Of a DNA stretch of 64,000 nucleotides, positions 33,095 to 54,643 are shown one piece after another. Under the pieces are notes generated by a model. That model was not told the DNA's origin, ran no database searches, and saw only the letters and a list, made by a program, of their open reading frames with translations. Source of the DNA: a virus (taxonomy: Duplodnaviria; Caudoviricetes). Each line of letters starts with the position of its first letter. Positions within the stretch are counted from its first letter, which is position 1. The translations under genes and the position numbers were made by a program. The stretch is taken from IMG/VR virus record IMGVR_UViG_2934965791_000001, positions 35,285-99,284 of that record; one strand, given 5' to 3'.

Positions 33095-33135
33095 TTGACG
33101 CGTAGCTACACGATGCCCTTACTATGTAGCTACAC
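33095..33135 (+). promoter_or_regulatory. Twin-operator promoter P1
   Basis: TTGACG cgtagctaca ... TACTAT gtagctacac (19-bp spacer); extra variant box at 33067. Confidence 0.75.
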
Positions 33136-33175
33136 GGGCCGCCGGGGAGCGGCCCCGACCGAAGGAGCATCGACC

Positions 33176-34738
33176 ATGAGCACCACTTCCGAAATGCGGG
33201 CTGTGATGCGGCAGTACGACCTCACGGAGCCGATGGTGCGCGCCGTCTTCAGCGGCGCCGACGACGCCGTCATCGACTGCAACTGGCGCACCGAAGCCGC
33301 TCTCGTCGAGCGCCGGCTGATGCACCGCACCATGTCGAACCTGACCCCGGAGGGCCGAGATGTCCTCGTCGCCCTCAAGGCCGCCGAAGGCGTCATCGAA
33401 CTGGCCGCGCCGGCCCCGGTCCAGGCGCCGGCCCCGAAGGTCGTCGAGGGCGTCATCGTCTCCCACGCCGGCACGGCGAAGGGCTGCCTCCCGAAGCACG
33501 TCGACGACTCCGACACCCGCGCCGCGATCGAGGCCCTGGACAACCTCAAGCTTGCCGAACTCGCCGACCACTTCGAGCCCGACGAGGGCACCGACGTGCG
33601 CGGCTTCATGGTCGAGCCCCGCGGTAACGGCCGGGTCGCCCTGTACTGGGTGTTCGGCGGCAGCATCCGCGACCACAACCGCGAGCCCTGGAAGGTAGAG
33701 CTGGAGATCGGCGCCGACAAGCTCCGGAAGGCCGGATGGCGGATCGAGCCGAAGTCGGTGTTCTGCGTGTTCGCCTGGCGCCCCATCGCCGAGACGATGC
33801 ACGAGGACGCCGTCCGGATGGAGAACGACGCCGCCGCTCGCCTGCCCCAGCTCAAGAACGGCGACTACGTCGAAGCCGAGACCGTCTCCGACATGCCGCA
33901 GACCATCAAGGTCACGGTCACCGGTCCAGCGGAGCACGCCCCTGGGGAGTTCGGGACCGTCCTCCGCGACGTGTGGGGCCCGGTTACGGTGAAGACCGAC
34001 AGCGTCCGTGTCATCAACGAGGCGGCGACCGCCCCGGTGCCGCCGATGTCCGCCGCGATGCAGCGGAACATCGACGCCGCCAACGACCTCCTCGCCGGCG
34101 TCGACTTCGGGGAGGACGAGCCCACCGACGCGCCGCTGGCACGGTTCGCGGTCGCCGTCGGCCCCGACGAGCGGATGTGGATCGGGTTCCACGAGTACGA
34201 CCGTGCCCTCCGCTGCGCCACCGAATACGGGCTCGGCGCCGACGCCATCCGCGACCGGCGCGCCCCGGAACGCCTGCGTGACGACCGGTCGTACGCCATC
34301 CAGTGGGGCACGGATGACGGGCAGTGGCACGGCAGCATCGTTTCGTCGGCGATCACCGGTGACGAGATCGGCGCGTACGTCGCGGACGTGCAGGCCCTCG
34401 CCAACCCCGGTGTCACGGTCCGGGCGGTCGAGATCCGGCTGACGCATACCGTCCTCCCGGCGGCCAGCGCGGCGGTGCCGTCCGACGTCGACCACGGCCC
34501 GGTCACCGCCCACACGGTGCGCTCCGGGTGCCGCGTCGACCTGTACGGCGCCGAACGCCTCGTCTACCGGGTCGAGTACCTGCACGCCGGTAACTACCTG
34601 CGGCTCCACACCGTCCCGCCGGCCGGCGAGCACCCCGGCTACTTCACCTTCACCAAGTCGCCCAGCGACCTGGTCGAACTGATCTCCCGCGGCCCGGCGG
34701 TCGACGTCACCGGCCGGCCCGTCGACGACGCCCGCTGA
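33176..34738 (+). CDS. Multi-domain hypothetical protein
   Basis: ATG at 33176 after GAAGGAG; 520 aa. Confidence 0.75.
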   Translation: MSTTSEMRAVMRQYDLTEPMVRAVFSGADDAVIDCNWRTEAALVERRLMHRTMSNLTPEGRDVLVALKAAEGVIELAAPAPVQAPAPKVVEGVIVSHAGTAKGCLPKHVDDSDTRAAIEALDNLKLAELADHFEPDEGTDVRGFMVEPRGNGRVALYWVFGGSIRDHNREPWKVELEIGADKLRKAGWRIEPKSVFCVFAWRPIAETMHEDAVRMENDAAARLPQLKNGDYVEAETVSDMPQTIKVTVTGPAEHAPGEFGTVLRDVWGPVTVKTDSVRVINEAATAPVPPMSAAMQRNIDAANDLLAGVDFGEDEPTDAPLARFAVAVGPDERMWIGFHEYDRALRCATEYGLGADAIRDRRAPERLRDDRSYAIQWGTDDGQWHGSIVSSAITGDEIGAYVADVQALANPGVTVRAVEIRLTHTVLPAASAAVPSDVDHGPVTAHTVRSGCRVDLYGAERLVYRVEYLHAGNYLRLHTVPPAGEHPGYFTFTKSPSDLVELISRGPAVDVTGRPVDDAR

Positions 34739-34742
34739 CCCC

Positions 34743-34771
34743 GGCACGGGCCGCTCGACCCGGTCCGTGCC
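34743..34771 (+). repeat. CTCGAC-loop hairpin
   Basis: ggcacgggccg-ctcgacc-cggtccgtgcc. Confidence 0.7.
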
Positions 34772-34823
34772 CCTCACCGGCCGGCCGCACACCGCGGCCG
34801 GCCCCCACCGAAGGGAACACGAG

Positions 34824-35042
34824 ATGTCTGCTGCTGCCCTGCGGCCCCCGGCCGCCGAGTCGGTCGTCATGCCCACCGACTACGCCGAGTACATGGCGAT
34901 GCGGCGGGAGAACCCGCGCCCGGGCCCGTGCTGCACCACCGCCGGCCCCGTCGAGCACTGGCCGATGTTCCACCGCTGCGGCGGCGGGAACGGCCCCGGC
35001 CGCACGATCCGCCCGCACTGCACGTGTGACCGCTGCTTCTGA
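34824..35042 (+). CDS. Small Cys/His-rich protein
   Basis: AAGGGA RBS; 'HCTCDRCF'. Confidence 0.6.
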   Translation: MSAAALRPPAAESVVMPTDYAEYMAMRRENPRPGPCCTTAGPVEHWPMFHRCGGGNGPGRTIRPHCTCDRCF

Positions 35043-35106
35043 CCTCACCCATCCGGCCGGCCGCCGACACCGGCGGCCGGCCCCGTCCCCGGAAGGGACA
35101 CGCATC

Positions 35107-35502
35107 ATGACCCAGGCACTGGCCGAGATTCCCACCGACGAGGTCGGGCTCATCCGCCTTTTGGAGGCCACGCCGGCCGGCGAGCGCTACGCGATATGCG
35201 AGAGGCTCGAAACGCAGATCGGCGACCAGGCCCGCGCGCACCGGCTGTACGAGCGCGCCGAGGCCGAGGTGCTGCACGGCGAGGCGTGCGAGCGGCTGCG
35301 CCGGCAGCTCACCGCGGCGCTGGACGCGGCCGCCGCCGAACTCCGCAAGGCCGAGGGCCTGATCGTCGACCTGTGCAGCCCGTCGGTGTACGACGTCGAG
35401 TACGCCGAGGGCGCCGGCGCCGACGACCTCCTCCACATGGTCACCACCGCGCACCGTTCGGCCCGTATCGCCGTCACGCTGCAGAAAGCCATCGCGGCAT
35501 GA
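35107..35502 (+). CDS. Hypothetical protein
   Basis: ATG at 35107 after GGAAGGG. Confidence 0.65.
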   Translation: MTQALAEIPTDEVGLIRLLEATPAGERYAICERLETQIGDQARAHRLYERAEAEVLHGEACERLRRQLTAALDAAAAELRKAEGLIVDLCSPSVYDVEYAEGAGADDLLHMVTTAHRSARIAVTLQKAIAA

Positions 35503-35975
35503 GGTGCCGCCTGTTCACCCACTGGTCCGTCGGGCTGGAATCGTGGGTGAACAGCACCGGCTACGCCCCGGACCGCGGGCCGTGGGAGTTCACCGCGTAC
35601 CTGTCGTGCGTGTGGGAGTCCATTCCGGGCGTCGAGGAGTGCGAGGTCTGGTTCTACGACCTCCCGACCGCGCCGGCCCGGGTCGTCGGCGGTCGGATCG
35701 AGGCCCGCATGCATTGGAGCGTCGACGTCCCCACCGAGGCTTGGAGGGCGTGGCGGGCCGAATGGGACCGGGGCGTGCCCGTCGTTCCCGGGGTCCGGCG
35801 TGACGCCCTGCGGTTCCTCGCCCGTGAGCTGTTCGTGTCCGGGGCGATCGCGCCGACGGATGCCGTCCTGACCGTGACCCGGGCCCGTGAGGGGCGCCGG
35901 CCGGCCTGGCAGGCGCTCACCGACCCCGTCCGCGTCTACCGGCCCGAGGATCGCGTCCCCGCCGGCCACCGCTAA
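35499..35975 (+). CDS. Hypothetical protein
   Basis: ATGA coupling to the upstream gene; Trp-rich. Confidence 0.6.
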   Translation: MRCRLFTHWSVGLESWVNSTGYAPDRGPWEFTAYLSCVWESIPGVEECEVWFYDLPTAPARVVGGRIEARMHWSVDVPTEAWRAWRAEWDRGVPVVPGVRRDALRFLARELFVSGAIAPTDAVLTVTRAREGRRPAWQALTDPVRVYRPEDRVPAGHR

Positions 35976-36004
35976 CTGTCACACCCCCCAGGAGAATTGA
36001 CACC

Positions 36005-36277
36005 GTGACCAGTAACAATCTCGTCCTCACGGCCGCCGGCGCCGCCGTCGCCTTCGTCGGCGTCATGGCCGCGGCATGCGGCCCGAGCCCGGTCGGTGCG
36101 CCGTCGTCCGTCGTCGTCGTGCACGACCACCACCACCACGACACCGTGATCGTGCAGCACGGCGGGGCGTCGTCGCGGAAGACGACCAAGTCGACGACGA
36201 CCACGACCAGGCGCAAGGGCCTGTTCGGATCGTCGACAACGACCCGGCGGTCTACGACCACCACCCGGCACCGCTGA
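36005..36277 (+). CDS. Putative lipoprotein
   Basis: Hydrophobic signal ending AAAC; AGGAG RBS. Confidence 0.55.
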   Translation: MTSNNLVLTAAGAAVAFVGVMAAACGPSPVGAPSSVVVVHDHHHHDTVIVQHGGASSRKTTKSTTTTTRRKGLFGSSTTTRRSTTTTRHR

Positions 36278-36342
36278 CCGCACCGCCCCTCCCCTGGAAC
36301 GCCCCGGCCTCCCCGCCGGGGCGTTTCCGTTTCCCCACAGGC

Positions 36343-36381
36343 TTGCGTGTAGCTACACGACGCCTTAGAGTGTAGCTACAC
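36343..36381 (+). promoter_or_regulatory. Twin-operator promoter P2
   Basis: TTGCGT gtagctacac gacgcct TAGAGT gtagctacac. Confidence 0.85.
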
Positions 36382-36414
36382 GGGGTCGCACGGGGCGGCC
36401 GGAAGGAGAACACG

Positions 36415-37110
36415 GTGAACACCACCCACAAGTACGACGAGGAACTGCCGGCCGAGGTCACCGAGGCGGCCGCCGGCGTCGTCGTCATCACCCAGGACGG
36501 CGACCGCCCGCACCACGACGTGTGGATGAACCAGCAGCACATCGGGAGCCTCTTCGACGAGACCGCCGCCAACCTGGCCCGCGGGAACTTCGCCGCCTGG
36601 TCCCCGAAGGGCAGCGGCAAGAACGGCATGGTCGGCTTCTTCGACACCAAGGAGGAGGCCGGCGAGGCCATCGCCCTCCCGTACCGGCCCGTCGGCCCGC
36701 GCGGGATGACCGAGCCCAGCAACCGGAACGACCGCTACAACTACAGCAAGCTGCCCGCCGACCGTCAGGCCGCCGTCGCCGAGCACGCTGCCCGCATGCA
36801 CGCCGAGGGTCGCCTCACCGCCGCCCGCGCCTGGCGGGAGGCCCTGAACGTCGACTGGCGCGACAACATCGCCACCCCCGACGAGGACACCCTCTTCATG
36901 TGCATCGCCGTCAACGGCGGCGAGATCCACACCACGGCAGGCCAGGACGACGACGGCCGCCACGTCTACCCGCTGTGCCGGACCATGGGCCAGAACAGCC
37001 GCCTGACGAAGTACCGGTTCATCACCGGCCGTGACCTCACTTGCCGGACGTGCATCAGGTACCGCGAGAACCGCGCGGCCGCCCGGGCCCGCAAGGTCGC
37101 CGGCGTCTGA
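36415..37110 (+). CDS. Hypothetical protein
   Basis: GAAGGAG RBS; C-terminal CxxC. Confidence 0.75.
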   Translation: MNTTHKYDEELPAEVTEAAAGVVVITQDGDRPHHDVWMNQQHIGSLFDETAANLARGNFAAWSPKGSGKNGMVGFFDTKEEAGEAIALPYRPVGPRGMTEPSNRNDRYNYSKLPADRQAAVAEHAARMHAEGRLTAARAWREALNVDWRDNIATPDEDTLFMCIAVNGGEIHTTAGQDDDGRHVYPLCRTMGQNSRLTKYRFITGRDLTCRTCIRYRENRAAARARKVAGV

Positions 37111-37125
37111 TCCGTCACCCCACGA

Positions 37126-37158
37126 CGCGCCCCGGCCACTCGACCAGGCCGGGGCGCG
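37126..37158 (+). repeat. CTCGAC-loop hairpin
   Basis: cgcgccccggcc-actcgacca-ggccggggcgcg. Confidence 0.85.
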
Positions 37159-37181
37159 CCCGACCTCACGGAAGGATCCGC

Positions 37182-37502
37182 ATAAGTAGCGGCAACCCCT
37201 GCAAGGACCGCCGGGCGCACCGCCCGCACTGGGTCGTCGCCCAGCGCCGGTACAACCAGTCGGCGTTCAACGGCTACCGGGTCACCCCGTCCGACTACTC
37301 CGAGGTCCGCTGCACCGCCCCCGGCTGCCTCGGAGTGTGGCGCACGAAGGCTGCGTTCGTCGACGCGCTCCCCGACGCCTGTGCCGGCTGCGGTCGGCCG
37401 GCCGAGACCCGGTGCCGGGTGTGCCGGCGGCCGCGGTGCCACGGGTGCCAGGCCGACCACCACCACGAGGGCTACGGCACGCCGGCGACGGACAGTCGCT
37501 GA
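37182..37502 (+). CDS. Cys-rich Zn-finger-like protein with apparent ATA start (or start-codon mutant)
   Basis: GGAAGGA RBS then in-frame ATA; multiple CxxC. Confidence 0.45.
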   Translation: MSSGNPCKDRRAHRPHWVVAQRRYNQSAFNGYRVTPSDYSEVRCTAPGCLGVWRTKAAFVDALPDACAGCGRPAETRCRVCRRPRCHGCQADHHHEGYGTPATDSR

Positions 37503-37561
37503 CCCTCGCACCGCCCCGGCGCCGGCCGCCGGGGCGGTCTCGTTTTCCTGCACGACCAGGC

Positions 37562-37601
37562 TTGCGTGTAGCTACACATGCGGGGCAAGCTGTAGCTACA
37601 C
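37562..37601 (+). promoter_or_regulatory. Twin-operator promoter P3
   Basis: TTGCGT gtagctacac atgcgggg CAAGCT gtagctacac. Confidence 0.85.
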
Positions 37602-37635
37602 GCCGGGGCGGCAGCCCCCGACCGAAGGAGACACC

Positions 37636-37980
37636 ATGCCCCGCGCCGTCGCCCCCGCCAAGACCCCCACCGTCGCCATCGCCCGCATCCTGCGCGGCCT
37701 GGGCCTCACCCAGGGGCGCGGCGGCAAGGACTTCTCCGTGACCGGCTTCTACGTCAACGGCGAGCGCCGGCATACCTACGTCGTCGCCTACAGCCGGCAC
37801 GCCGAAGAGGTCATCGCCGCGCACGCCGACGAGATCGAGGCTGCCGCCAACGCAGCCGGCTGGTGCTTCTACGTCTCGGTCCGCTACAGCGCGTCCGGCC
37901 GGGTCCACACCTCCGTGCAGAACGCCGGCGCCCGCGTCCGCGAGGCCCAGCCGGCCGTCCTGGCCGTGACCGCCGCCTGA
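37636..37980 (+). CDS. Hypothetical protein
   Basis: ATG at 37636 after GAAGGAG. Confidence 0.7.
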   Translation: MPRAVAPAKTPTVAIARILRGLGLTQGRGGKDFSVTGFYVNGERRHTYVVAYSRHAEEVIAAHADEIEAAANAAGWCFYVSVRYSASGRVHTSVQNAGARVREAQPAVLAVTAA

Positions 37981-38016
37981 CCGCCACACACGCCCCGCAC
38001 CCTGGAAGGCCCTGCC

Positions 38017-39255
38017 ATGTCCGACACCCCGATACCCGTCCTCGTCAGCTGGGGTCTCGGCGCCGACTCCACCGCGATCCTCACCCAGTTCCTCGACGAC
38101 CCCGCCGGGCACGGCCTCACCCCCGACCTGTCCGAGTGCACGGTCATCGTCGCCCTGACCGGCGAGGAGTGGCCCGACACCATGGACCTGGCCGAACGGC
38201 ACATCCTGCCGTTGCTCGCCCGCCGGCGCGTCCGCCTGGTCCAGGTCGCGCGCGGCGGCCCGTCCGACACTGACGGCATCGTCGTCCTGTCCGACACTCG
38301 CACCCCCGACCGGCTGCACCGGCGCGGCCCGTGGGCCCTCACCGACGAACTCGGACCCACCGGCACCGTGCCGCAGTTCGCGGCGAAGCGGCGGCTGTGC
38401 TCCATCAAATTCAAGGGCTGGGTGATGGACCAGTGGGCGGCCGCCGAGTACGGGGCGCAGGCGTACCGGCACGTGATCGGGTACGAGGCGAATGAGGCCG
38501 GCCGCGCCGAGCGCGACTACACGTACGCCTCCCCGACTCGCCGCCCCTGGTATCCCCTCATCGACTGGGACTGGGCTCGGCCGCGGATCCTGGACCACCT
38601 CCTGGAACGGTTCGGCGTGGTGTGGCCCAAGTCGTACTGCACCATGTGCCCGTACCCCGTGGCCCGGGCGTCCCTGAACGCGCACCTCGCCCGCTGTCGC
38701 ACCTTCCCCGAACTCGCCGCCGCCGTGCTCCGCCTGGAGTCCAACGCGGTCGCCCTGAACCCCCGGTCGACGCTGTACCGCGACGGCTCCCTCATGGGGC
38801 ACATCCGGGCCGACGGGAACACCGCCGCCCTCGACGCGTACGAGCGGGACCAGGCCGCGACCGATTGGGCCGCATACGAGGTCCGCCGGGTCTTCTTCGC
38901 CGGGCGCTCCGACCACTGCCGCACCGTGCACGGCACGTCGTGCAGGAGGCCGGGCCCGTGGTGCCGCGACCCGTTCCGGAAGGGGCCGGCCTGGCGCTCG
39001 GTGCGCACCGTGCACCGCGGCGACCGTGACGCCGTGCTGGCGCACCTGGAGGCGGAGGCCGCGGAGATGGACGCGCCGACGATCTCGGTAAACGGCATCA
39101 CGCGGGTCCCGTTCCATGAGCGGGGCGAGACCTACCCCGGCGCGGAGGGGTACCTCGTCGCCGCACCGGCCGGGGTCGTCGACAAGGCGCGCGACGGCTT
39201 CGATGCCATGTGGGACAAGGTCACCTCCTTCGGGGCGCTGGATCTGATCGCGTAA
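38017..39255 (+). CDS. PAPS-reductase-like (PP-loop) protein
   Basis: 'VSWGLGADST' PP-loop variant; 'ALTGEEWP', 'CSIKFK', 'YPLIDW', 'KSYCTMCP'. Confidence 0.75.
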   Translation: MSDTPIPVLVSWGLGADSTAILTQFLDDPAGHGLTPDLSECTVIVALTGEEWPDTMDLAERHILPLLARRRVRLVQVARGGPSDTDGIVVLSDTRTPDRLHRRGPWALTDELGPTGTVPQFAAKRRLCSIKFKGWVMDQWAAAEYGAQAYRHVIGYEANEAGRAERDYTYASPTRRPWYPLIDWDWARPRILDHLLERFGVVWPKSYCTMCPYPVARASLNAHLARCRTFPELAAAVLRLESNAVALNPRSTLYRDGSLMGHIRADGNTAALDAYERDQAATDWAAYEVRRVFFAGRSDHCRTVHGTSCRRPGPWCRDPFRKGPAWRSVRTVHRGDRDAVLAHLEAEAAEMDAPTISVNGITRVPFHERGETYPGAEGYLVAAPAGVVDKARDGFDAMWDKVTSFGALDLIA

Positions 39256-39287
39256 CTCGGCGGCGTGCTTTTCTCTGCCCACCAAGC

Positions 39288-39327
39288 TTGCGTGTAGCTA
39301 CACACCTAGGTCAAGCTGTAGCTACAC
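39288..39327 (+). promoter_or_regulatory. Twin-operator promoter P4
   Basis: TTGCGT...CAAGCT with two boxes. Confidence 0.85.
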
Positions 39328-39368
39328 GGAGCGGGACGGACCCGCCCCACCACCCCTCGGAGGCCACC

Positions 39369-39524
39369 ATGACGAACACCACCACCGCCGCCGCCCGCTT
39401 CGTCGCCCGCAAGGGCAACGGCCACTGGTACGTCCTCGACACCGAGACCGGCGCCGTCCGCACCGGCATGGTCCGGGTTGGCGCAATCCAGGTCGCCGAC
39501 CACCTCAACCGCACCACCCCCTGA
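39369..39524 (+). CDS. Small hypothetical protein
   Basis: ATG at 39369 after GGAGG; 51 aa. Confidence 0.65.
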   Translation: MTNTTTAAARFVARKGNGHWYVLDTETGAVRTGMVRVGAIQVADHLNRTTP

Positions 39525-39628
39525 CCGGGGGCGGTCGGCGGGCACTCGCCCGTCGGCCGCCACCTGGCCGCGCAGCCGCGCCCCGCGCCGACCAGCCGGG
39601 GCGCGGCTTTTTTCTCTCCGGACTGGGC

Positions 39629-39667
39629 TTGCGTGTAGCTACACGACGGGGCAAGCTGTAGCTACAC
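39629..39667 (+). promoter_or_regulatory. Twin-operator promoter P5
   Basis: TTGCGT...CAAGCT with two boxes; preceded by a U-tailed terminator hairpin. Confidence 0.85.
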
Positions 39668-39710
39668 GGAGCGGGACGGACCCGCCCCACCAACCTCCCC
39701 GGAGGCCACC

Positions 39711-40316: not shown

Positions 40317-40327
40317 CCGCGCCCCAG

Positions 40328-40360: not shown

Positions 40361-40371
40361 TTTCGCTCGCC

Positions 40372-42272: not shown

Positions 42273-42283
42273 CCCCGCCGGCC

Positions 42284-47438: not shown

Positions 47439-47448
47439 CCGCCCCACA

Positions 47449-47478
47449 CCGGCCCCGCCACTCGACCTGGCGGGGCCG
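47449..47478 (+). repeat. CTCGAC-loop hairpin
   Basis: ccggccccgcc-actcgacct-ggcggggccgg. Confidence 0.85.
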
Positions 47479-47585
47479 GCCACCCCCGGACCGTTCGCCA
47501 CGCCCCCAGCCGCCCCCTGCTGGTGGCGTCGCAATCCGCCCGGGAACGCCCCCAGACCGCCCCACACCGCACGAAGGGAACCACC

Positions 47586-47912: not shown

Positions 47913-47930
47913 TTCCTCCCCCGTGATGCC

Positions 47931-47970
47931 TTGCGTGTAGCTACACACTCCACTTAGAGTGTAGCTACAC
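47931..47970 (+). promoter_or_regulatory. Twin-operator promoter P13
   Basis: TTGCGT...TAGAGT with two boxes. Confidence 0.85.
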
Positions 47971-48010
47971 GGACGGGAACGGCCCGGCCGGAAAGCCCAG
48001 GAGGCACACG

Positions 48011-48358
48011 ATGATCAAGTCCAGCCGCGACCGCCGCAACGTCACCCGCGAGCGCGCCGCCGCCACCCGCCTCGCCGCCTCCATCCGCCGGGGCCGCGCC
48101 CGCTCGATCGCCACCCACGCGATCGCCGCCGGTATCCCGGCCGAGACCGCGAAGGGCGTAGCGGGCGGCCTCCGCACCGTCGCGAAGCGCCTCGGCGTCC
48201 AGCCGGTCCGGGTCGTCAACAACCGCCGCAACGACCGCAACCCGGGCGAGGTCCGCCACCACTACACCCCGGCACAGGTCGCCGTGCTCCGCGCGAACTA
48301 CAAGCCGCGCAAGGCCGAGTACGTCGACGCCGTCGCCCGCATGGCGCTCGCCGCCTGA
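48011..48358 (+). CDS. Basic hypothetical protein
   Basis: AGGAGG RBS; 'YKPRKAEY'. Confidence 0.7.
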   Translation: MIKSSRDRRNVTRERAAATRLAASIRRGRARSIATHAIAAGIPAETAKGVAGGLRTVAKRLGVQPVRVVNNRRNDRNPGEVRHHYTPAQVAVLRANYKPRKAEYVDAVARMALAA

Positions 48359-48369
48359 CCAACCATCCC

Positions 48370-48404
48370 GCGCGGCCCGGCCACTCGACCGGGCCGGGCC
48401 GCGC
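48370..48404 (+). repeat. CTCGAC-loop hairpin
   Basis: gcgcggcccggcc-actcgaccg-ggccgggccgcgc. Confidence 0.85.
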
Positions 48405-48431
48405 ACCCCACACACCCAAGGAGTCACGACC

Positions 48432-48725
48432 ATGCACCAGCACACCCCCGACACCGCCCCGGCCGCCGCCGACGCCGAGCCGGCCGCCGCCGAGGGCTTC
48501 TACGTGAGCGCCCGCTACCGGGACCGCGCCCGGCTGCTGCTCGGCCCGTACGCGACGCACCAGGAGGCGAAGGACAACGTGGCGCGGGCGCGCCGGTACG
48601 TCGTGGAGTACGACCTCCTCGGCTGGCTGTACGCGTACGGCACGCTGCGCGGCGAGATGAAGGCCGGCCGTCCGCTGCCGGCAGGCCGGCTCAACGACGT
48701 GCTCGGGCTGACCGAGGCCGGCTGA
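48432..48725 (+). CDS. Hypothetical protein
   Basis: AAGGAG RBS; 'LLLGPYATHQEA'. Confidence 0.7.
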   Translation: MHQHTPDTAPAAADAEPAAAEGFYVSARYRDRARLLLGPYATHQEAKDNVARARRYVVEYDLLGWLYAYGTLRGEMKAGRPLPAGRLNDVLGLTEAG

Positions 48726-48787
48726 CCGGGCCGGCAGTGCGCCGGCGGGCTCCTGCCGGCGCACCCGGCCGGGCCGGAAACCCCCGC

Positions 48788-48826
48788 TTGCGTGTAGCTA
48801 CACACTCCCGTATTCTGTAGCTACAC
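48788..48826 (+). promoter_or_regulatory. Twin-operator promoter P14
   Basis: TTGCGT...TATTCT with two boxes. Confidence 0.85.
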
Positions 48827-48866
48827 GGAACGGGAACGGCCCGACCGACCAGCCGAAAGGCACACG

Positions 48867-49103
48867 ATGATCACCGAGACCATCACCCCCGAACTCGCCA
48901 CCGCCCTCAACAAGTTCATCAAGGCGTTCGGGGAGGTTGACACAGTCGGCGACCTCGCCCCCGCCCTCTCCTGCGTCGAGGTCGACTACATGGCGGACCT
49001 GTTCCGCGCGGCCGGACAGCCGGAGGCGGCCGACGCATGGAAGGCCGACCACGAGGCGGCGGAAGGCCCGTGCGACTGCACCGACACGGACGACGACGAG
49101 TAA
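48867..49103 (+). CDS. Small acidic protein
   Basis: GAAAGG RBS; 78 aa, D/E-rich. Confidence 0.7.
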   Translation: MITETITPELATALNKFIKAFGEVDTVGDLAPALSCVEVDYMADLFRAAGQPEAADAWKADHEAAEGPCDCTDTDDDE

Positions 49104-49111
49104 CACCCCCT

Positions 49112-49144
49112 GCGCCCCCGGTCACTCGACCTGACCGGGGGCGC
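49112..49144 (+). repeat. CTCGAC-loop hairpin
   Basis: gcgcccccggtc-actcgacct-gaccgggggcgc. Confidence 0.85.
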
Positions 49145-49188
49145 GCCCCCAGATCGCCCGCTACGCCCCGCAGGAAGGTTCCGCCCCC

Positions 49189-49335
49189 GTGAGCACCCCG
49201 CCCACCCCGCGCGTCCCCCAGATCCCGCGTGCGCCCCGCGACGACCGCGCAACGGCCATGCGCCGCCCGTGCGAGTGCTGCGGCGCCGCGCCCGGCGAGG
49301 AGTGCAGCCCGTTCGAGATGTGCAGCGCGGAATAG
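49189..49335 (+). CDS. Small Zn-finger-like protein
   Basis: GTG after GGAAGG; 'CECCGAAPGEEC'. Confidence 0.45.
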   Translation: MSTPPTPRVPQIPRAPRDDRATAMRRPCECCGAAPGEECSPFEMCSAE

Positions 49336-49339
49336 CCCC

Positions 49340-49378
49340 TTGCGTGTAGCTACACGACACCTTAGTCTGTAGCTACAC
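49340..49378 (+). promoter_or_regulatory. Twin-operator promoter P15
   Basis: TTGCGT...TAGTCT with two boxes. Confidence 0.85.
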
Positions 49379-49418
49379 GCCACGGGGAAACGCCCCAGGC
49401 CAGCGAAGGGAACACCGA

Positions 49419-49634
49419 ATGTTCGAGCCGACCGCCGCCCGCGCCGCCCTCAACACCTACGCCGCGCGCGTCCCCGGCGAGCGCGCCGAGGACCGCCAGG
49501 TGCAGGCGACCGACCTCCTGGTCGACCTCCTGCTGATGTTCGAGGACGACACCGCGCACGCGATCCTCGCCGCCGCCGAGCGCCGCATGACGGAGGAGCG
49601 CCCGGGCGTCACGCCGCGGTTCGTGGGCGTCTGA
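49419..49634 (+). CDS. Small hypothetical protein
   Basis: AAGGGA RBS; 'TDLLVDLLL'. Confidence 0.7.
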   Translation: MFEPTAARAALNTYAARVPGERAEDRQVQATDLLVDLLLMFEDDTAHAILAAAERRMTEERPGVTPRFVGV

Positions 49635-49646
49635 CCGCCCCGGGGC

Positions 49647-49673
49647 GCCCCGGTCACTCGACTGGACCGGGGC
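49647..49673 (+). repeat. CTCGAC-loop hairpin
   Basis: gccccggtc-actcgactg-gaccggggc. Confidence 0.8.
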
Positions 49674-49723
49674 CCCCGCGGCCGCCACAACCCCCGCCAC
49701 GCCCCGAGAAAGGGCCACGCGCG

Positions 49724-50107
49724 ATGACCACCACTGCCGACGCCGTGACGTTCACGTTCCCCTCCGGCGCGACCGTCGACCTGCCTGCCGGCATGACCCC
49801 GTGCCGCACTGCCGGCGACTCCGTCACCGAGGACGTCAGCCGGTTCGTCACGGTCGGCGTCACCCCTGCCGGCCGCGAGGTGCGGTCGCACTTCTCCTGC
49901 GCCGCGTACACCCGGGCCGCGCACCTGTACTCGATGCGGGAGGCCGTCGCGAAGGTGCGCGCCCGGGCGGCCGGCCTCGATGCGCGCGGCCTCACGATCA
50001 AGGCCGCGAACCTCCGGGGACACCTCGCCGCGACCGAGGCCGAGCACGCCGCGGCGATAGCCGACTGGACGGCCGACCCCGCGCCGTGCACCTGCCCGGA
50101 GGACTGA
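49724..50107 (+). CDS. Hypothetical protein (paralog of 50231-50602)
   Basis: Shared 'LPAGMTPCR', 'TPAG', 'DPAPCTCP'. Confidence 0.7.
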   Translation: MTTTADAVTFTFPSGATVDLPAGMTPCRTAGDSVTEDVSRFVTVGVTPAGREVRSHFSCAAYTRAAHLYSMREAVAKVRARAAGLDARGLTIKAANLRGHLAATEAEHAAAIADWTADPAPCTCPED

Positions 50108-50123
50108 CCGCCCCCCGGCTGCT

Positions 50124-50154
50124 GCGCCCCCGCCACTCGACCGGGCGGGGGCGC
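50124..50154 (+). repeat. CTCGAC-loop hairpin
   Basis: gcgcccccgcc-actcgaccg-ggcgggggcgc. Confidence 0.85.
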
Positions 50155-50193
50155 TTGCGTGTAGCTACATGACCGGGCAAGCTGTAGCTACAC
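50155..50193 (+). promoter_or_regulatory. Twin-operator promoter P16
   Basis: TTGCGT...CAAGCT with two boxes. Confidence 0.85.
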
Positions 50194-50230
50194 GGACGGA
50201 CGGGACCGCCCCCGACGGAAGGATCACCCG

Positions 50231-50602
50231 ATGCACAACATGACGCAGGCCCTGCGCGACGGGGGGCAGGTGGAACTCCCCGCCGGCATGACCCCGTGCC
50301 GCCGGCCGCTGCGCGTCCTCTACTCCGGTGAGGAGGGCGGCCGGGTGCGCGGATACACGCCGGCCGGCGCCTCCATCTACACCGCGTGGTCGTGCCCGGC
50401 GTACGCCCGGGCGGCCGAGATCGCAGGGGAGCGGGTCCTGATCGCCCGTCTGCGGGACCGGGCCGGCCAGTTCGACGCGGCGCGCGTTCCGGCCGCTGCG
50501 GCGAAGCTGCGGGCCCTGGCGGACCGGCAGGCGGCCGCGCTGGCGCTGACGCTCGCGGCGTACGCCGACGACCCGGCGCCGTGCACCTGCCCGACGGACT
50601 GA
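50231..50602 (+). CDS. Hypothetical protein (paralog of 49724-50107)
   Basis: GGAAGGA RBS; shared motifs. Confidence 0.7.
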   Translation: MHNMTQALRDGGQVELPAGMTPCRRPLRVLYSGEEGGRVRGYTPAGASIYTAWSCPAYARAAEIAGERVLIARLRDRAGQFDAARVPAAAAKLRALADRQAAALALTLAAYADDPAPCTCPTD

Positions 50603-50614
50603 CGCACGCCCCCT

Positions 50615-50649
50615 ACGCCCCCCGGCACCTCGACCACGCCGGGGGGCGT
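50615..50649 (+). repeat. CTCGAC-loop hairpin
   Basis: acgccccccggc-acctcgaccac-gccggggggcgt. Confidence 0.8.
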
Positions 50650-50668
50650 TCCCGTGCCCGGACAGGGC

Positions 50669-50707
50669 TTGCGTGTAGCTACACGACCGCATAATCTGTA
50701 GCTACAC
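50669..50707 (+). promoter_or_regulatory. Twin-operator promoter P17
   Basis: TTGCGT...TAATCT with two boxes. Confidence 0.85.
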
Positions 50708-50748
50708 GCCACGACAACACACCGCCCATCTATCGAAGGAGGCCCACC

Positions 50749-51000
50749 ATGGCCCGCCGCTCCCCCGCCCAGCTCGCCGTCCTCGCGATCGTCGCCAACG
50801 GAAACGTCAAGGTCTACCGGGCCGGGAGCAAGAACCCCCGCGTCATCGACCACACCACCGGCGCCCGCATCAATCTCAACACCCACCGCGCCCTCCAGTC
50901 CGCCGGTCTCGTGGAGCGCGACCGCAGCACCAGCCTCTACCAGGGGCAGGCCGTGAACCTCACCGACGCCGGGCGCGCCGAACTGGACGCCGCCCGCTGA
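50749..51000 (+). CDS. Small winged-helix-like protein
   Basis: AAGGAGG RBS; 'ALQSAGLVER...LTDAGRAEL'. Confidence 0.7.
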   Translation: MARRSPAQLAVLAIVANGNVKVYRAGSKNPRVIDHTTGARINLNTHRALQSAGLVERDRSTSLYQGQAVNLTDAGRAELDAAR

Positions 51001-51013
51001 CCACCCCTCCGCC

Positions 51014-51044
51014 GCGCCCCGGTCACTCGACCCGACCGGGGCGC
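51014..51044 (+). repeat. CTCGAC-loop hairpin
   Basis: gcgccccggtc-actcgaccc-gaccggggcgc. Confidence 0.85.
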
Positions 51045-51064
51045 AGCCAGCCCACCCCAAGAGC

Positions 51065-51103
51065 TTGCGTGTAGCTACACAGTCGCATAGTCTGTAGCTA
51101 CAC
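51065..51103 (+). promoter_or_regulatory. Twin-operator promoter P18
   Basis: TTGCGT...TAGTCT with two boxes. Confidence 0.85.
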
Positions 51104-51124
51104 GATGACGACACGGAGGACACC

Positions 51125-51478
51125 ATGAAGACCACGACCGCGGCCCCCAGGTACTGGCGCACCGGCAAGGGCCAGAAGCGCCACGCCTCCGAGTTCTGCG
51201 CGAACGGCCGACGCTCGGTCTTCACCGGTGACGTCACCGTCATCCCGGCCGGCCAGGTCAAGGACTGGGCGCCGTGCAAGTTCTGCTGCACCACCGAGGA
51301 GATCGCGGCGTTCGGCCAGGAGGCGCCGGCCGCGGCCACGCCGGCCAAGACGTACTGCGCGAACACCGGCGTGGAGAACGCCCGCAAGGTCTACAGCCGC
51401 TGCACGGACTGCGGCAAAGGCGGCTCGGTGAACCGGCGCACCGGCACCCTCCGGGCCCACGAGCCCGCGAAGCAGTAG
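51125..51478 (+). CDS. Cys/His Zn-binding hypothetical protein
   Basis: GGAGGA RBS; 'H..EFC', 'CKFCC', 'CTDC...LRAH'. Confidence 0.7.
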   Translation: MKTTTAAPRYWRTGKGQKRHASEFCANGRRSVFTGDVTVIPAGQVKDWAPCKFCCTTEEIAAFGQEAPAAATPAKTYCANTGVENARKVYSRCTDCGKGGSVNRRTGTLRAHEPAKQ

Positions 51479-51484
51479 AGCGCA

Positions 51485-51521
51485 GCCGCGCCCCGGTCAC
51501 TCGACCGGACCGGGGCGCGGC
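51485..51521 (+). repeat. CTCGAC-loop hairpin
   Basis: gccgcgccccggtc-actcgaccg-gaccggggcgcggc (identical to the copy at 41151). Confidence 0.85.
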
Positions 51522-51558
51522 ACCCGAACCGACACACCGAACGCCAACGGAGGACACC

Positions 51559-51963
51559 GTGGCTGGCTTCACCATCAAGGGCATCACCGACGACACCGAC
51601 CGGTGCGAGCACTGCGGGACCCGCATCAGGCGGGCCGTTGCCCTCATGCCCCTCGACGCCGACGGCAGCGAGGACGGCGACGTCGTGTACTACGGCACGA
51701 CGTGCGCCAGCCGCGCCCTCGGCCGTAAGACCGCCTGGGTCACCAACCAGGCCCGCGCCGCCCAGGCCAAGTGGGAGCAGCAGGCCGAACGCGCCCGGGA
51801 ATGGCTCGCCGCCTACGAGCCCGTGGAGTTCGCGCCCGTCCGCGAGAAGTTCCGGGTGTTCGTCGTCGAGCGGAACAACACGGTGCGCCCCGGCGAGACC
51901 GTGACGGACGCCGTGGCCGGCCTCTTGGCGAGCGCCCGCGCAATCCTCGCCGCCCGCATCTGA
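51559..51963 (+). CDS. Zn-finger hypothetical protein
   Basis: GTG at 51559 after GGAGGA; 'CEHCG...YYGTTCA'. Confidence 0.7.
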   Translation: MAGFTIKGITDDTDRCEHCGTRIRRAVALMPLDADGSEDGDVVYYGTTCASRALGRKTAWVTNQARAAQAKWEQQAERAREWLAAYEPVEFAPVREKFRVFVVERNNTVRPGETVTDAVAGLLASARAILAARI

Positions 51964-52056
51964 CCCGCCCTGTACCCGCGCCGACAGTCACCCCCGGCCG
52001 GCGGCGCGCCCCCGTCGTCCATGCCCGACCGACACGCCCCGGAAGGACCACCCGAG

Positions 52057-52605
52057 ATGACCGACACCCTCGACGACGACCACCCGCACCGGTACCGGTA
52101 CTTCGGCTCGCGCGCCGGCGCCCGGTGCGTGGCGTGCAACGACCCCGAGCCCGCGCCGGCGGACGCCCCGCCGGCCGTCGTCCGCGTGACCGCCGCGGTG
52201 CTCGCCGGCCACCACACCGCCGACACCCGCAACGAGTACGGGTCGTGCATCGCCTCCGGGTTCCGCGTCGCCCTCGGTGCCGACGACCGTGCACGTGTCC
52301 ACCACCAGCTTCGGCCTGCAGACTTGACCGACCCCGACCGGCCGTCCATCCACGAGCGCTGGGAGGAGATGCGCGCCCGGGTCGCCGCGTACGCGAAGAC
52401 GCTTGAGGACGACGGCTTCACCGTGGACTGCCGCGAGCGGCCCACGGGCCCGTATCTCCTCGCCACGCCGGCCGCGCCGCACTGCGACTGCTACGCCGCG
52501 GCCGGCCGCATCGGCTCCCGCGGGCACGGGACGACGACGGAGCACGACCCGGAGTGCCACAGCATCACCTCGGCCGACGGTGCGTCGGCAGGGGTCGGCC
52601 GGTAG
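52057..52605 (+). CDS. Hypothetical protein
   Basis: ATG at 52057 after GGAAGGA. Confidence 0.6.
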   Translation: MTDTLDDDHPHRYRYFGSRAGARCVACNDPEPAPADAPPAVVRVTAAVLAGHHTADTRNEYGSCIASGFRVALGADDRARVHHQLRPADLTDPDRPSIHERWEEMRARVAAYAKTLEDDGFTVDCRERPTGPYLLATPAAPHCDCYAAAGRIGSRGHGTTTEHDPECHSITSADGASAGVGR

Positions 52606-52691
52606 CTGGCGCGCGGCCGGCGGTGACTCGCTGCGCCGGTCGCCTCCCGGTCGAGGAGAGACGGCTGGCGCAGCGCTTTTCCCGCCCCCCC

Positions 52692-52730
52692 TTGCGTGTA
52701 GCTACACATACGGGCAAGCTGTAGCTACAC
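52692..52730 (+). promoter_or_regulatory. Twin-operator promoter P19
   Basis: TTGCGT...CAAGCT with two boxes. Confidence 0.85.
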
Positions 52731-52761
52731 GACGACGCAACGATCCAGGGAGCCACCGGAC

Positions 52762-53211
52762 ATGACCACCGCCACGAAGCCCGCAGCCATCACCCCCGCC
52801 CAGCGCAAGGCGCTGCTCCTGGTCGCCGGCGGCAACGTCGTCGCCTGGCTCCGCGGCGAGGCCGGCTTCGCCACCATCAACGGCAACGCCGAGCGCAAGC
52901 TCAACGACCTCGGGCTGATCGAGGACGTCAAGGTCATGACCCGCACCCGCACCGCGTACGGGACGGCCATGACGTACGACGTGAAGGTGTGGGTCCTCAC
53001 CCCGGCCGGCCGGAACGCGCTGGGCGTCGTCTCGTCGACGACCGCGACCGCGAACACCCGGGCGCACCAGGTGCGGGCGATCGGCCGGCAGCACGTTGAC
53101 GACGCGGCCCCCATGGGCGAGTGCGCGGTGTGCGAGACGGTCGGCGAGTGGAACGCGCTGGTGGACCTCGCGCCGAACGCGTACGGGTGCCCGGGGCGCG
53201 CCCGGTACTGA
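52762..53211 (+). CDS. Winged-helix-like hypothetical protein
   Basis: GGGAG RBS; 'ITPAQRKAL...LNDLGLI...LTPAGRNAL'. Confidence 0.7.
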   Translation: MTTATKPAAITPAQRKALLLVAGGNVVAWLRGEAGFATINGNAERKLNDLGLIEDVKVMTRTRTAYGTAMTYDVKVWVLTPAGRNALGVVSSTTATANTRAHQVRAIGRQHVDDAAPMGECAVCETVGEWNALVDLAPNAYGCPGRARY

Positions 53212-53228
53212 CCCCGGCGCCGGCACGC

Positions 53229-53263
53229 GGCCGGCCCTGCCACTCGACCGGGCAGGGCCGGCC
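53229..53263 (+). repeat. CTCGAC-loop hairpin
   Basis: ggccggccctgcc-actcgaccg-ggcagggccggcc. Confidence 0.85.
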
Positions 53264-53285
53264 TTGAAGTCGTGCCGGACTGGGC

Positions 53286-53325
53286 TTGCGTGTAGCTACA
53301 CACATGGGGCAAGCTGTAGCTACAC
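53286..53325 (+). promoter_or_regulatory. Twin-operator promoter P20
   Basis: TTGCGT...CAAGCT with two boxes. Confidence 0.85.
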
Positions 53326-53344: not shown

Positions 53345-54154
53345 ATGAACGCCACCGCCACCAACGACCTGACCGGCTACTACTACCCCTCCGCCCCCGG
53401 CGCCCGCACCTGGCGCGAGGCCCGCGACCTCTACATCAACGGCAAGCGCGTCTCCGCCCACGTCGCCGGCGACCGCCACGCCACCGTCTTCATCGGCGGC
53501 GAGATCGTCTTCGAAGGCGCCCTCCCCACCGAGATCATCACCTCCGGCCAGGCGCAGACCTGGGCCCGTGACACCGCCCTGGACGCCGCCGCCAACGAGG
53601 CCGCCGCGGTCGACGCCGCCGAGGCCATCGTCGCCGAGGCCGCCGGCACCATCGCCGCCGAACTGTCCGCGACCGCCACCACCGCCGCCGAGCACCGCGC
53701 CGCGGCCGCCGCCTTCACCAAGGCGCAGCACGTGTCCGCCGAGCGGGCCGACGAGGCCGACGGCGCACTCAGCCAGTGGGCGCACGGCCTAAACGCCGCG
53801 GAGCACCACCTCGCCGCCGAGATCGCCGAGGACGGCGGCAAGGCCGAGTTCGCCGGGCTGTTCGACCTGAACGGCAACCTCGTCCCCGCGGTCCGCGTCG
53901 ACGGCCGGTACGGCTGGTACTGGAAGCTCCTCGACGGCCGCGGCCGCACCGCCGGCCTGTTCAACGAGTCCAAGGCCAAGACCGCCGACCGCCGGCGCGC
54001 CGCGGACGCCCGCAAGGGCTACTACGTCGGCCGGGTCCGGGTCGCGGCCCGCGCGGTCCTCGCCGGCGGCGGCATCGGCACCGTGATGCCCCGCGCCGAG
54101 CGCATCGACGGCGGGTACTCCGCCGCGGCGATCGTCGTCGACAACGGCCAGTAA
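53345..54154 (+). CDS. Hypothetical protein
   Basis: ATG at 53345 after AAGGGA; 'DGALSQWA...LFDLNGNLV...GRYG'. Confidence 0.7.
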   Translation: MNATATNDLTGYYYPSAPGARTWREARDLYINGKRVSAHVAGDRHATVFIGGEIVFEGALPTEIITSGQAQTWARDTALDAAANEAAAVDAAEAIVAEAAGTIAAELSATATTAAEHRAAAAAFTKAQHVSAERADEADGALSQWAHGLNAAEHHLAAEIAEDGGKAEFAGLFDLNGNLVPAVRVDGRYGWYWKLLDGRGRTAGLFNESKAKTADRRRAADARKGYYVGRVRVAARAVLAGGGIGTVMPRAERIDGGYSAAAIVVDNGQ

Positions 54155-54163
54155 CCGGCCCCA

Positions 54164-54192
54164 CGGCCCCGCCCACCGACCGGGCGGGGCCG
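54164..54192 (+). repeat. Degenerate loop hairpin
   Basis: cggccccgccc-accgacc-gggcggggccg. Confidence 0.65.
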
Positions 54193-54214
54193 ACCCACTC
54201 CCCGGAGGCACAAC

Positions 54215-54514
54215 ATGCCCGAGACCCCCGACGTCATCGTCAGCATCACCCGCTACACCGTGTCCGTCTTCCCGGCCGACAGCAAGGATCACCGGTACTA
54301 CGCGCTCCAGGTCGAGCTGAAGCCCCGCGGCTGGGTCGTCACCGACGGCGCCACGTACTACGGGCCCGACGGCGCCGAGGAATTCAGCGTGTCCACCGCG
54401 CACCACTTCGCCGACCACGAGGAGGCGCTGACCCTGGCCGAGGGACTGGCGCCGCACCTCACCATCAACAGGAACACGGCCGCCGAGGTCTACCGCCACA
54501 CCCGCAACGCCTGA
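54215..54514 (+). CDS. Hypothetical protein
   Basis: GGAGG RBS; last gene of the array. Confidence 0.7.
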   Translation: MPETPDVIVSITRYTVSVFPADSKDHRYYALQVELKPRGWVVTDGATYYGPDGAEEFSVSTAHHFADHEEALTLAEGLAPHLTINRNTAAEVYRHTRNA

Positions 54515-54530
54515 CCCCAGAAACACGTGA

Positions 54531-54560
54531 AGGCCCCCGAGCGACGATGCTCGGGGGCTT
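54531..54560. terminator. Hairpin at the convergence of the array and the early operon
   Basis: aggcccccgagc-gacgat-gctcgggggctt. Confidence 0.6.
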
Positions 54561-54621
54561 ACGCGCGTGAAGCGTCATGACCTGCTGCGGCCGGCACGAC
54601 CCTCATGACCATCGTGTTCTG

Positions 54622-54643
54622 TGTCGCTACAGGTGTAGCTACA
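54622..54643. promoter_or_regulatory. Closely spaced operator-like boxes without a promoter
   Basis: tgtcgctaca-gg-tgtagctaca. Confidence 0.55.

Follow-up and report, generated by a model that had tools for sequence, protein, structure and literature searches.

Twin palindromic boxes at twenty promoters and a candidate ribbon-helix-helix repressor in a putative Streptomyces phage-plasmid

Introduction

Why does a single 21-kb block of a provirus carry the same short palindrome twice in each of twenty promoters, and which protein would read it? We addressed this question in a 64,000-nucleotide (nt) stretch of DNA, hereafter the window, which is the last 64 kb (positions 35,285 to 99,284) of IMG/VR record IMGVR_UViG_2934965791_000001, a 99,284-bp Caudoviricetes record classed as provirus. 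The element is a candidate phage-plasmid of Streptomyces. Such phage-plasmids have barely been studied, including in how they choose between silent carriage, transfer and lysis. A preliminary description, made from the letters of the window, had proposed a regulon of cloned promoters under a single repressor. Here we report the layout of these promoters, the small gene that accompanies them and their distribution in other genomes, and we argue that a 20-unit regulon under one small element-encoded repressor is fairly probable as the explanation of the whole. Positions refer to the window unless the record is named.

Results

Twenty promoters carry twin palindromic boxes

The 10-bp palindrome TGTAGCTACA, hereafter the box, has 42 exact matches in the window against 0.02 expected, and none of 100 shuffled windows reached this number; when one mismatch was allowed, the sites rose to 46. 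Forty of the 42 exact boxes lie inside 33095-54643. None of these 40 falls in a called coding region, although coding DNA makes up 81% of this stretch and non-coding DNA 19%.

The boxes build 20 plus-strand composites, which were found at all 20 coordinates of the preliminary description. The order is -35, box 1, a gap of 7-8 nt, -10 and box 2, and in 20/20 cases box 1 fills the -35/-10 spacer and box 2 starts on the final base of the -10, overlying the expected transcription start, as had been claimed. The -35 reads TTGCGT in 15 of the 20 promoters, and the -10 hexamer is of the TAnnnT type in 13 and CAAGCT in seven. By a script count the spacer is 17 nt in 12 promoters and 18 nt in eight; the 19-nt spacer reported earlier for the first promoter, P1, holds when TTGACG is taken as its -35. 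The distance from box 1 to box 2 is 23 nt in 12 promoters and 24 nt in the other eight. In all 20, a purine-rich run resembling a ribosome-binding site (RBS), with an ATG or GTG opening a frame of high third-position G+C content, follows 20-44 nt past box 2, which agrees with the 20-45 nt estimated before. The 33095 start of the stretch is indeed that of P1, and its other end, 54643, belongs to a terminal box rather than a promoter. The number of genes fell from about 38 to 35 on recounting, and the short units of 1-5 genes stood. Except for this gene count, the repeat array was confirmed as it had been described. The promoters, all on the plus strand, are as follows.

33095 to 33134: P1, with TTGACG, box 1 as the one-mismatch variant CGTAGCTACA, TACTAT and box 2; heads five genes
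36343 to 36380: P2, twin-box, TAGAGT
37562 to 37600: P3, twin-box, CAAGCT
39288 to 39326: P4, twin-box, CAAGCT
39629 to 39666: P5, twin-box, CAAGCT
40372 to 40409: P6, twin-box, TAGTCT
41647 to 41685: P7, twin-box, TAGTCT
43102 to 43139: P8, twin-box, TAGAGT
43585 to 43622: P9, twin-box, TAGCGT
44896 to 44934: P10, twin-box, TAGTCT
46644 to 46681: P11, twin-box, TAGTCT
46994 to 47032: P12, twin-box, CAAGCT
47931 to 47969: P13, twin-box, TAGAGT
48788 to 48825: P14, twin-box, TATTCT
49340 to 49377: P15, twin-box, TAGTCT
50155 to 50192: P16, twin-box, CAAGCT
50669 to 50706: P17, twin-box, TAATCT
51065 to 51102: P18, twin-box, TAGTCT
52692 to 52729: P19, twin-box, CAAGCT
53286 to 53324: P20, twin-box, CAAGCT

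A small divergent gene accompanies the boxes

Directly upstream of P1, on the opposite strand, lies the small gene that the preliminary description had named as the single repressor for all boxes.

32714 to 33010, minus strand: candidate repressor of 98 amino acids (aa) with a charged C-terminal helix, probably of the ribbon-helix-helix (RHH) type, divergent from P1
33011 to 33094, minus strand: the repressor's own promoter, with TTGCGC, an 18-nt spacer holding a box at 33031-33040, TACGGT, 7 nt and the ATG at 33010

The ATG at 33010 has no RBS, which is a leaderless layout, and its promoter contains one operator. The same layout of the own promoter was found in the relatives G001 and G002 and in the plasmid CP108999.1, and distant phage loci have TACCCT, 7 nt and ATG. 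The region upstream of the gene also holds a variant box, TGTAGGTACA, at 33067-33076. Counted from the repressor gene to P1, the boxes number four (33031, the 33067 variant, a variant at 33101, and 33125), and because their spacing is that of the four-box switch of small phages, P1 looks like the ancestral early promoter, of which P2-P20 would be copies.

The 98-aa protein has 18 close homologues, all annotated as hypothetical. A profile search of 1.84 billion representative proteins identified 201 relatives at E <= 0.001, mostly of 55-110 aa, and the C-terminal helix is found in the phage-plasmid clade and is absent from the short phage forms. Neither the 98-aa protein nor one distant relative gave a tblastn match in 50,697 phage records, and no relative emerged when species genomes were scanned with the protein pattern of the 98-aa protein alone. 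Several of the profile-detected relatives (P0020-P0025, P0041) consist of three tandem domain copies in one chain of 200-250 aa. From these sequences, the protein appears to belong to a previously undescribed family of about 200 sequence clusters that has no Pfam model and includes natural specificity variants.

We then asked how regularly gene and boxes occur together. Scanning IMG/VR for the twin-box pattern returned 10 contigs: two, both close relatives about 98 kb long, carry 32 and 21 boxes, and the other eight have 3-5 boxes each in a single cluster. In every one of them, the boxes are adjoined by a small gene whose product shows the N-terminal pattern (T/K)PRQ(I/V/F)R-x-D-x-W. The repressor was adjacent to boxes in G001, G002, G005, G009, CP108999.1 and Streptomyces nogalater; in G003, G004, G006, G008 and G010 a small divergent open reading frame (ORF) with the same N-terminal motif stands beside the box cluster.

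Because the IMG/VR scan was seeded with the boxes, a reverse test was performed on 18 viral loci retrieved by protein similarity alone with the family alignment. All nine loci whose predicted strand carries RQxR have exact boxes at most 150 nt upstream, and none of the nine loci lacking RQxR has an exact box; in seven of these nine, the same positions are taken by four variant sites that resemble palindromes. The variant strands pair with variant sites as follows: KN with TGT(A/G)GGTACA, RP with TGTAGATACA/TGTATCTACA, RK with TGTGGCCACA and HRP with TGTATATCCA. The central bases of the operator change together with the strand residues, with the G006 type as the one exception. Taken together, the covariation between protein and operator is strong and gives good comparative evidence that the 98-aa protein reads the boxes. 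The earlier assignment of all boxes to this one gene is most probably right, given the adjacency in every relative examined and the covariation.

Predicted fold of the candidate repressor

The AlphaFold2 (AF2) monomer model of the 98-aa protein (pLDDT 80.5) has an extended segment at residues 14-20, helices at 22-32 and 43-55, and a long charged helix at 69-97, so that the N-terminal strand followed by two helices, as in an RHH protein, is present in the model. For the three-domain relative P0020 (pLDDT 83.6), the model places strands at 17-19 and 136-138, each followed by two helices, with strand pairing not listed in the output. This is what an internally paired RHH would resemble, and P0020 is possibly a single-chain pseudo-dimer.

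In sequence searches, RHH_1 was the sole Pfam family matched more than three times among 105 relatives (5/105, best E 8.2e-05), and it was matched by one of 25 in a smaller set of relatives. The top PDB profile matches, which were weak (E 0.07-0.3), were the RHH-containing MatP and NikR and a CopG-family protein. We regard an RHH fold of the 98-aa protein as probable.

Boxes outside the cassette reach the packaging operon

The remaining boxes extend the possible reach of the regulon beyond the 20 units.

20398 to 20475, minus strand: single-box promoter with TTGAGA, 18 nt, CAAGCT, a box at 20427-20436 over the expected start, an RBS and the ATG at 20397
record position 24656 (24650-25118): box-1-only promoter with the -10 CAAGAT, driving a 134-aa gene without a Pfam family
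54622 to 54643: end-of-cassette boxes, TGTCGCTACA (one mismatch) and TGTAGCTACA, 12 nt apart

The promoter at 20427 heads an operon that reaches the terminase large subunit (18631-17009; terminase by domain match). It is conserved in G002 (L026 position 13461), and in S. nogalater a box lies 1.8 kb upstream of the terminase gene, the positional counterpart of 20427. Through this promoter the same repressor may gate virion production. The end-of-cassette boxes sit in a 279-bp gap between convergent genes, and G001 also has a terminal box.

The 134-aa gene behind the promoter at record position 24656 adjoins a convergent lysis/tail block. There are no boxes in the first 24.6 kb of the record, and because of this the region at record 1-24 kb may be a separate island or host flank. 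It encodes two integrase-like proteins, an HTH_36 protein and a pair of an ATP-grasp protein and a PCMT-type methyltransferase, which is graspetide-like.

Cargo genes and hairpins form a mosaic

33176 to 54514, plus strand: cargo, 35 genes in 20 units of 1-5 genes
34726 to 53277, plus strand: 16 G+C-rich hairpins (e.g. 37139, 41166, 51500), their stems variable (about 11-14 bp) and their loops conserved around ACTCGACC

Pfam families were absent from 33 of the 35 cargo proteins, and only two passed the Pfam cut-offs, namely DUF6197 (43968-44888) and DUF3560 (45417-46601). Eight of the 20 largest cargo proteins match a PHROG, one of which is labelled (PAPS-reductase-like, E 2.4e-14, 38017-39255). 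An ESM Atlas search with the 520-aa first cargo protein returned nothing usable, and a literature search on DUF3560 gave no functional lead. The preliminary description had proposed an establishment or anti-defence cargo. None of the 35 proteins matched an anti-restriction or other counter-defence Pfam family, so this proposal was not supported, and such a role of the cargo is an unproven guess.

The hairpins lie 16-32 nt past stop codons, some closing a unit and others separating genes within it, and a strong hairpin is found ahead of most promoters. A T tail is missing from most of the 16, and a scan for terminator-like sites gave no excess over shuffled sequence (7 found vs 5.4 expected). 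The hairpins could be terminators, RNA stabilisers, or targets of a protein or RNase.

We compared the gene content of this stretch (G000, 36 called ORFs) with its relatives and found matches for 18 ORFs in G001, eight in G002 and seven in CP108999.1. The matched cargo proteins are 45-85% identical, and the boxes are identical throughout. Some genes lie behind different promoters or at other unit positions among these four genomes. The start of a shared DNA block is often 0-5 nt away from a promoter, and its end some 20-30 nt from the loop of a hairpin. Within the window itself, P4 and P5 (39288-39400 and 39629-39740) have the promoter and a nearly identical 5' leader in common, and the genes behind them differ (51 vs 201 aa). 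The common leader suggests a recent module duplication.

The boxes do not mark a host regulator site

One outcome that would have spoken against the preliminary description was that the motif is a common regulator site of host chromosomes. This was not so. Among 185,579 species genomes, no more than 28 stretches have the twin-box pattern, 15 of which are actinomycete (Streptomyces, Nocardiopsis, Streptosporangiaceae, Actinosynnema and an actinomycete metagenome-assembled genome, MAG) and 13 of which belong to low-GC Clostridia and related Firmicutes. In the 8.4-Mb genome of S. nogalater, 32/32 boxes lie in one 61-kb stretch with a 90%-identical terminase, and in a second genome 12/12 boxes lie on one 36-kb contig. 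Among 40 other Streptomyces genomes, 30 are box-free and 10 have 1-4 boxes, several of them in tight switch-like clusters. Boxes are thus essentially absent from host chromosomes, and a host regulator site was rejected.

The reversed control word, at 0-22 occurrences per genome, is commoner in the 40 Streptomyces genomes than the box itself, which 30 of them lack; this may reflect avoidance of the box or mere composition.

In the Clostridia-type MAGs (L029, L031, L034, L042, L044, L048 and other low-GC loci), twin TGTAGCTACA boxes stand 26 nt apart; the promoters that hold them are TTGACA/TATACT-like and precede genes for BlaI/MecI-like repressors of 123 aa. With BlaI/MecI-like genes in low-GC DNA, these were rejected as part of the system and attributed to an unrelated family that uses the same 10-mer.

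The element and its relatives

Beside the cassette, the window carries genes of a virion and of plasmid transfer.

9504 to 12578, minus strand: portal-NUDIX-MuF triple fusion of 1024 aa, by domain match
23951 to 25959, minus strand: type III polyketide synthase (PKS) beside an MmyB-like regulator, with the transfer genes on one side and the late operon on the other

The left arm, on the minus strand, also encodes the large terminase, a protein resembling DNA methylases, an FtsK/SpoIIIE (TraB-like) protein whose C-terminal part is a winged helix, and DUF2637; an HTH_36 protein follows these genes on the plus strand. SSB and RusA are encoded in the right arm of the window. The part of the record before the window contains tail and lysis genes, two integrase-like genes and a graspetide-type cluster. 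The plasmid-phages pSLE1 and pZL12 are described as having a type III PKS and phage particle genes (PMC4487206). Compared by description only, the present element resembles pZL12 and pSLE1 in combining virion genes, plasmid transfer and replication genes and an orphan type III PKS in one element of about 90-100 kb. By its gene content, it appears to be a pZL12-like Streptomyces phage-plasmid.

Searches of named records for near-identical DNA found none in phages and gave only partial matches in plasmids. The 155-kb linear plasmid CP108999.1 of Streptomyces has annotated conjugal-transfer, relaxase-family and pilus/secretion genes; it encodes a 73% identical repressor and carries 15 boxes forming six twin pairs, and the window terminase used as query found no match in it. 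On this plasmid, a twin-box promoter divergent from the repressor faces an operon towards a replication-relaxation family gene, and a second repeat, GTCCGCTTCGCT, is present in nine copies at 110-155 kb (L017). Multi-promoter arrays are seen in the close relatives and in CP108999.1, and ordinary actinophages have the four-box switch only.

Discussion

A model for the twin-box regulon

Based on the above results, we infer binding, repression, timing and a role of the cargo along the following lines. The 21-kb block would be an accessory or early gene region of a pZL12-like phage-plasmid, cut into 20 transcription units, each starting at a host-type (HrdB-like) promoter with one operator in the spacer and another at the start site. 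Each palindrome would receive the two-stranded ribbon of one RHH dimer, which makes two dimers per cargo promoter, and these, perhaps bridged by the C-terminal helix, would block both polymerase binding and open-complex formation. The repressor gene is placed like a phage CI gene, divergent from P1, with a predicted leaderless mRNA and a single box in its own promoter. Because that promoter has one box and the cargo promoters have two, self-repression should be milder than repression of the cargo, and low repressor levels would hold the cargo silent. In the carrier state, all units and the one-box packaging/late operon would be held off. Upon entry into a repressor-free cell, by infection or TraB-type transfer, or upon loss of the repressor, all promoters would fire until the repressor is rebuilt, and the box on the packaging promoter would tie virion production to the same switch. 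The promoter-gene-hairpin units would be exchangeable modules, with relatives sharing modules and differing in gene sets.

Judged from the sequence, a master repressor of a temperate element fits better than an establishment regulon alone, because single boxes also stand on the repressor's own promoter and on the packaging-operon promoter and because the same repressor and operator occupy the immunity-switch position in ordinary prophages.

Several observations weigh against this model. The 98-aa protein has no Pfam family match. Foldseek against PDB found no match at E <= 0.001 for either the 98-aa or the P0020 model, the monomer of a dimer-only fold being a poor query, and a wide structural search (VIA) reached a best Z of 4.2, to non-RHH chains. 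No box was seen at one of the 18 homology-picked loci, L068. The G006 type (strand TPIRV, without RQ) keeps the standard box, and the residue-to-base correspondence is therefore not a strict code. CAAGCT replaces the TAnnnT -10 in seven promoters, and a simple sigma-70 consensus scan scored 0/20. Because the promoters are all alike, the block ends near them are confounded. Neither a sensor domain nor an antirepressor was identified.

Alternative explanations

The cassette could instead be, more narrowly and as in the preliminary description, a plasmid establishment or anti-defence regulon tuned to conjugative, TraB-driven entry of double-stranded DNA, just as Reg576 governs ardC and the genes around it. 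CP108999.1 speaks for this explanation, since the same repressor, the operator and seven shared cargo families (DUF3560 included) occur there together with conjugation-type genes and no terminase match, and so do the TraB-like FtsK protein encoded in the window and the contrast between two-operator cargo promoters and a one-operator repressor promoter, which matches Reg576 (PMC6294495). The lack of anti-defence Pfam families in all 35 cargo proteins, the repressor family at the switch of ordinary prophages that have no cassette, and the box on the packaging-operon promoter, which is not an establishment function, all pull the other way, and we regard this explanation as possible but doubtful. 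Alternatively, the repeats may be mainly recombination modules, like the promoter/stem-loop cassettes of T4-type phages, with co-regulation being secondary. The promoter-gene-hairpin units, the mosaic content, the same gene behind different promoters in relatives, and the frequent closeness of shared-block ends to promoters and hairpin loops would all be expected of such modules, and the stem-loop cassettes offer a precedent (PMC2839356). Recombination has no need of perfect twin palindromes at fixed positions or of covariation with a DNA-binding protein, and as the main function of the repeats we consider it improbable; the idea is compatible with the repressor model rather than opposed to it.

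It could also be argued that another factor of the host or the element (MmyB-like, HTH_36) reads the boxes and that the small gene is a mere neighbour, given that the small protein has no family assignment and its role as reader is deduced from sequence comparison. Since the operator changes with the strand residues of this protein across independent loci, the boxes are essentially absent from host chromosomes, and the other regulators are not conserved beside the box clusters of small phages, we judge another reader to be very unlikely. We give the least credence to the explanation that the small protein is an activator or anti-terminator whose boxes recruit RNA polymerase to weak promoters. 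The seven promoters with the poor -10 CAAGCT and the consensus scan that scored 0/20 would suit an activator, but boxes in the spacer and over the start site are at positions that normally exclude polymerase, the gene's own promoter likewise has a box in its spacer, and 13 promoters combine a TAnnnT -10 with a TTGCGT-type -35 at 17-18 nt.

Implications

If the repressor model is right, the locus would be a compact switch in which one protein of 98 aa acts through a 10-bp site on more than 20 target promoters, which fall into two strength classes. The natural variants of strand residues and operator centres should be useful for studies of DNA reading and for orthogonal repressor/promoter pairs in actinomycetes, and membership of the regulon makes 35 unknown genes candidates for functions at the time of entry, e.g. 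counter-defence. We further propose, tentatively and as speculation, that the RHH repressor, the twin operator in a host-type promoter and the conserved-loop hairpin form a portable kit that moves between Streptomyces temperate phages, phage-plasmids and conjugative plasmids. In its multiplied form this frame might act as an integrase-free, integron-like array that captures and swaps ready-regulated accessory, possibly counter-defence, cassettes for one burst on entry, with operator specificity diversifying through two or three strand residues into separate immunity groups.

What appears to be new is the twin-operator promoter, the candidate repressor, their spread over phages, phage-plasmids and a conjugative-type plasmid, and the link to the late operon. 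Reg576 as an analogue apart, none of the papers listed by the literature searches, which did not include the phiC31 and pZL12 papers, described this system.

Comparison with known systems

Five known systems share part of this design with the cassette. The immunity-repressor stoperators of temperate actinophages are likewise many sites spread over a genome; they are 13-bp, asymmetric and act on elongation, whereas the boxes are palindromic and lie in promoters. Only the terminal boxes at 54622 and 54634 could act in a stoperator-like manner. In the CUP repeats of the IncN plasmid pKM101, with ArdK and ArdR, several units of the leading region start with a conserved repeat holding the site of a self-controlling repressor (PMC6289460, PMC6294495). 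The CUPs are given there as stretches of more than 400 bp before seven units on a plasmid of single-stranded DNA transfer, in contrast to the repeat of about 40 bp with twin palindromes found here (PMC6289460, PMC6294495).

The promoter-early stem-loop (PeSL) cassettes separate small non-essential unknown genes by a strong promoter and a stem-loop and show mosaic gene content (PMC2839356), and we found a promoter and a stem-loop between small genes with mosaic content in G000, G001, G002 and CP108999.1. Unlike our boxes, PeSL has no repressor operator as described there (PMC2839356), and its host and T4-type phage are unrelated. If modules indeed shuffle, the cassette would correspond, in actinomycetes, to the promoter/stem-loop cassettes of T4.

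In the Streptomyces phage phiC31 (AJ006589.3), we counted eight intergenic copies of the palindrome TACTCACGTGAGTA and five of the promoter-like repeat CCGGGTTGCCGACT at 24-41.5 kb. This phage, too, is temperate and has an early region divided by a repeated palindrome and a repeated promoter-like element. We take the repeats to be those called CIR and the c repressor to be their binding protein. In contrast to the cassette, the phiC31 palindrome is single and longer (14-18 bp) and separate from the promoter-like repeat, which is not of the TTGxxx/TAnnnT type; in the window, twin short palindromes lie within a TTGCGT/TAnnnT promoter. The repeated intergenic palindromes and promoters of phiC31 suggest that the design is not without precedent.

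The other close parallel is Reg576 of the Bacillus pumilus plasmid p576, which controls four promoters and for which the asymmetry between two-operator and one-operator promoters was shown experimentally (PMC6294495). Like the candidate repressor as predicted here, it is a small autoregulated RHH protein with two operators on its cargo promoters, one on its own and host-type promoters; that report also proposes transient, zygotic-induction-like expression after entry and places hairpins in 5' leaders (PMC6294495). The window has the same excess of operators on the cargo side, with two on each of 20 promoters against one on the repressor's own. The comparison made in the preliminary description stands for the repressor layout, and the establishment cargo it implied was not found among the 35 proteins. 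Profile searches of PDB chain sequences returned no Reg576 entry at E <= 10 or E <= 1, with the presence of its chain in the copy searched unconfirmed. Reg576 differs in controlling four promoters, against 20 twin-box and three single-box promoters here, and in having each operator made of two direct 7-bp repeats beside the -35, against 10-bp palindromes in the spacer and at the start site (PMC6294495). The p576 cargo includes an ArdC-like gene, none of which was found in the window, and the host element here is an actinomycete phage-plasmid. Taken together, these comparisons identify Reg576 as the closest system in logic and phiC31 as the closest in organism and layout.

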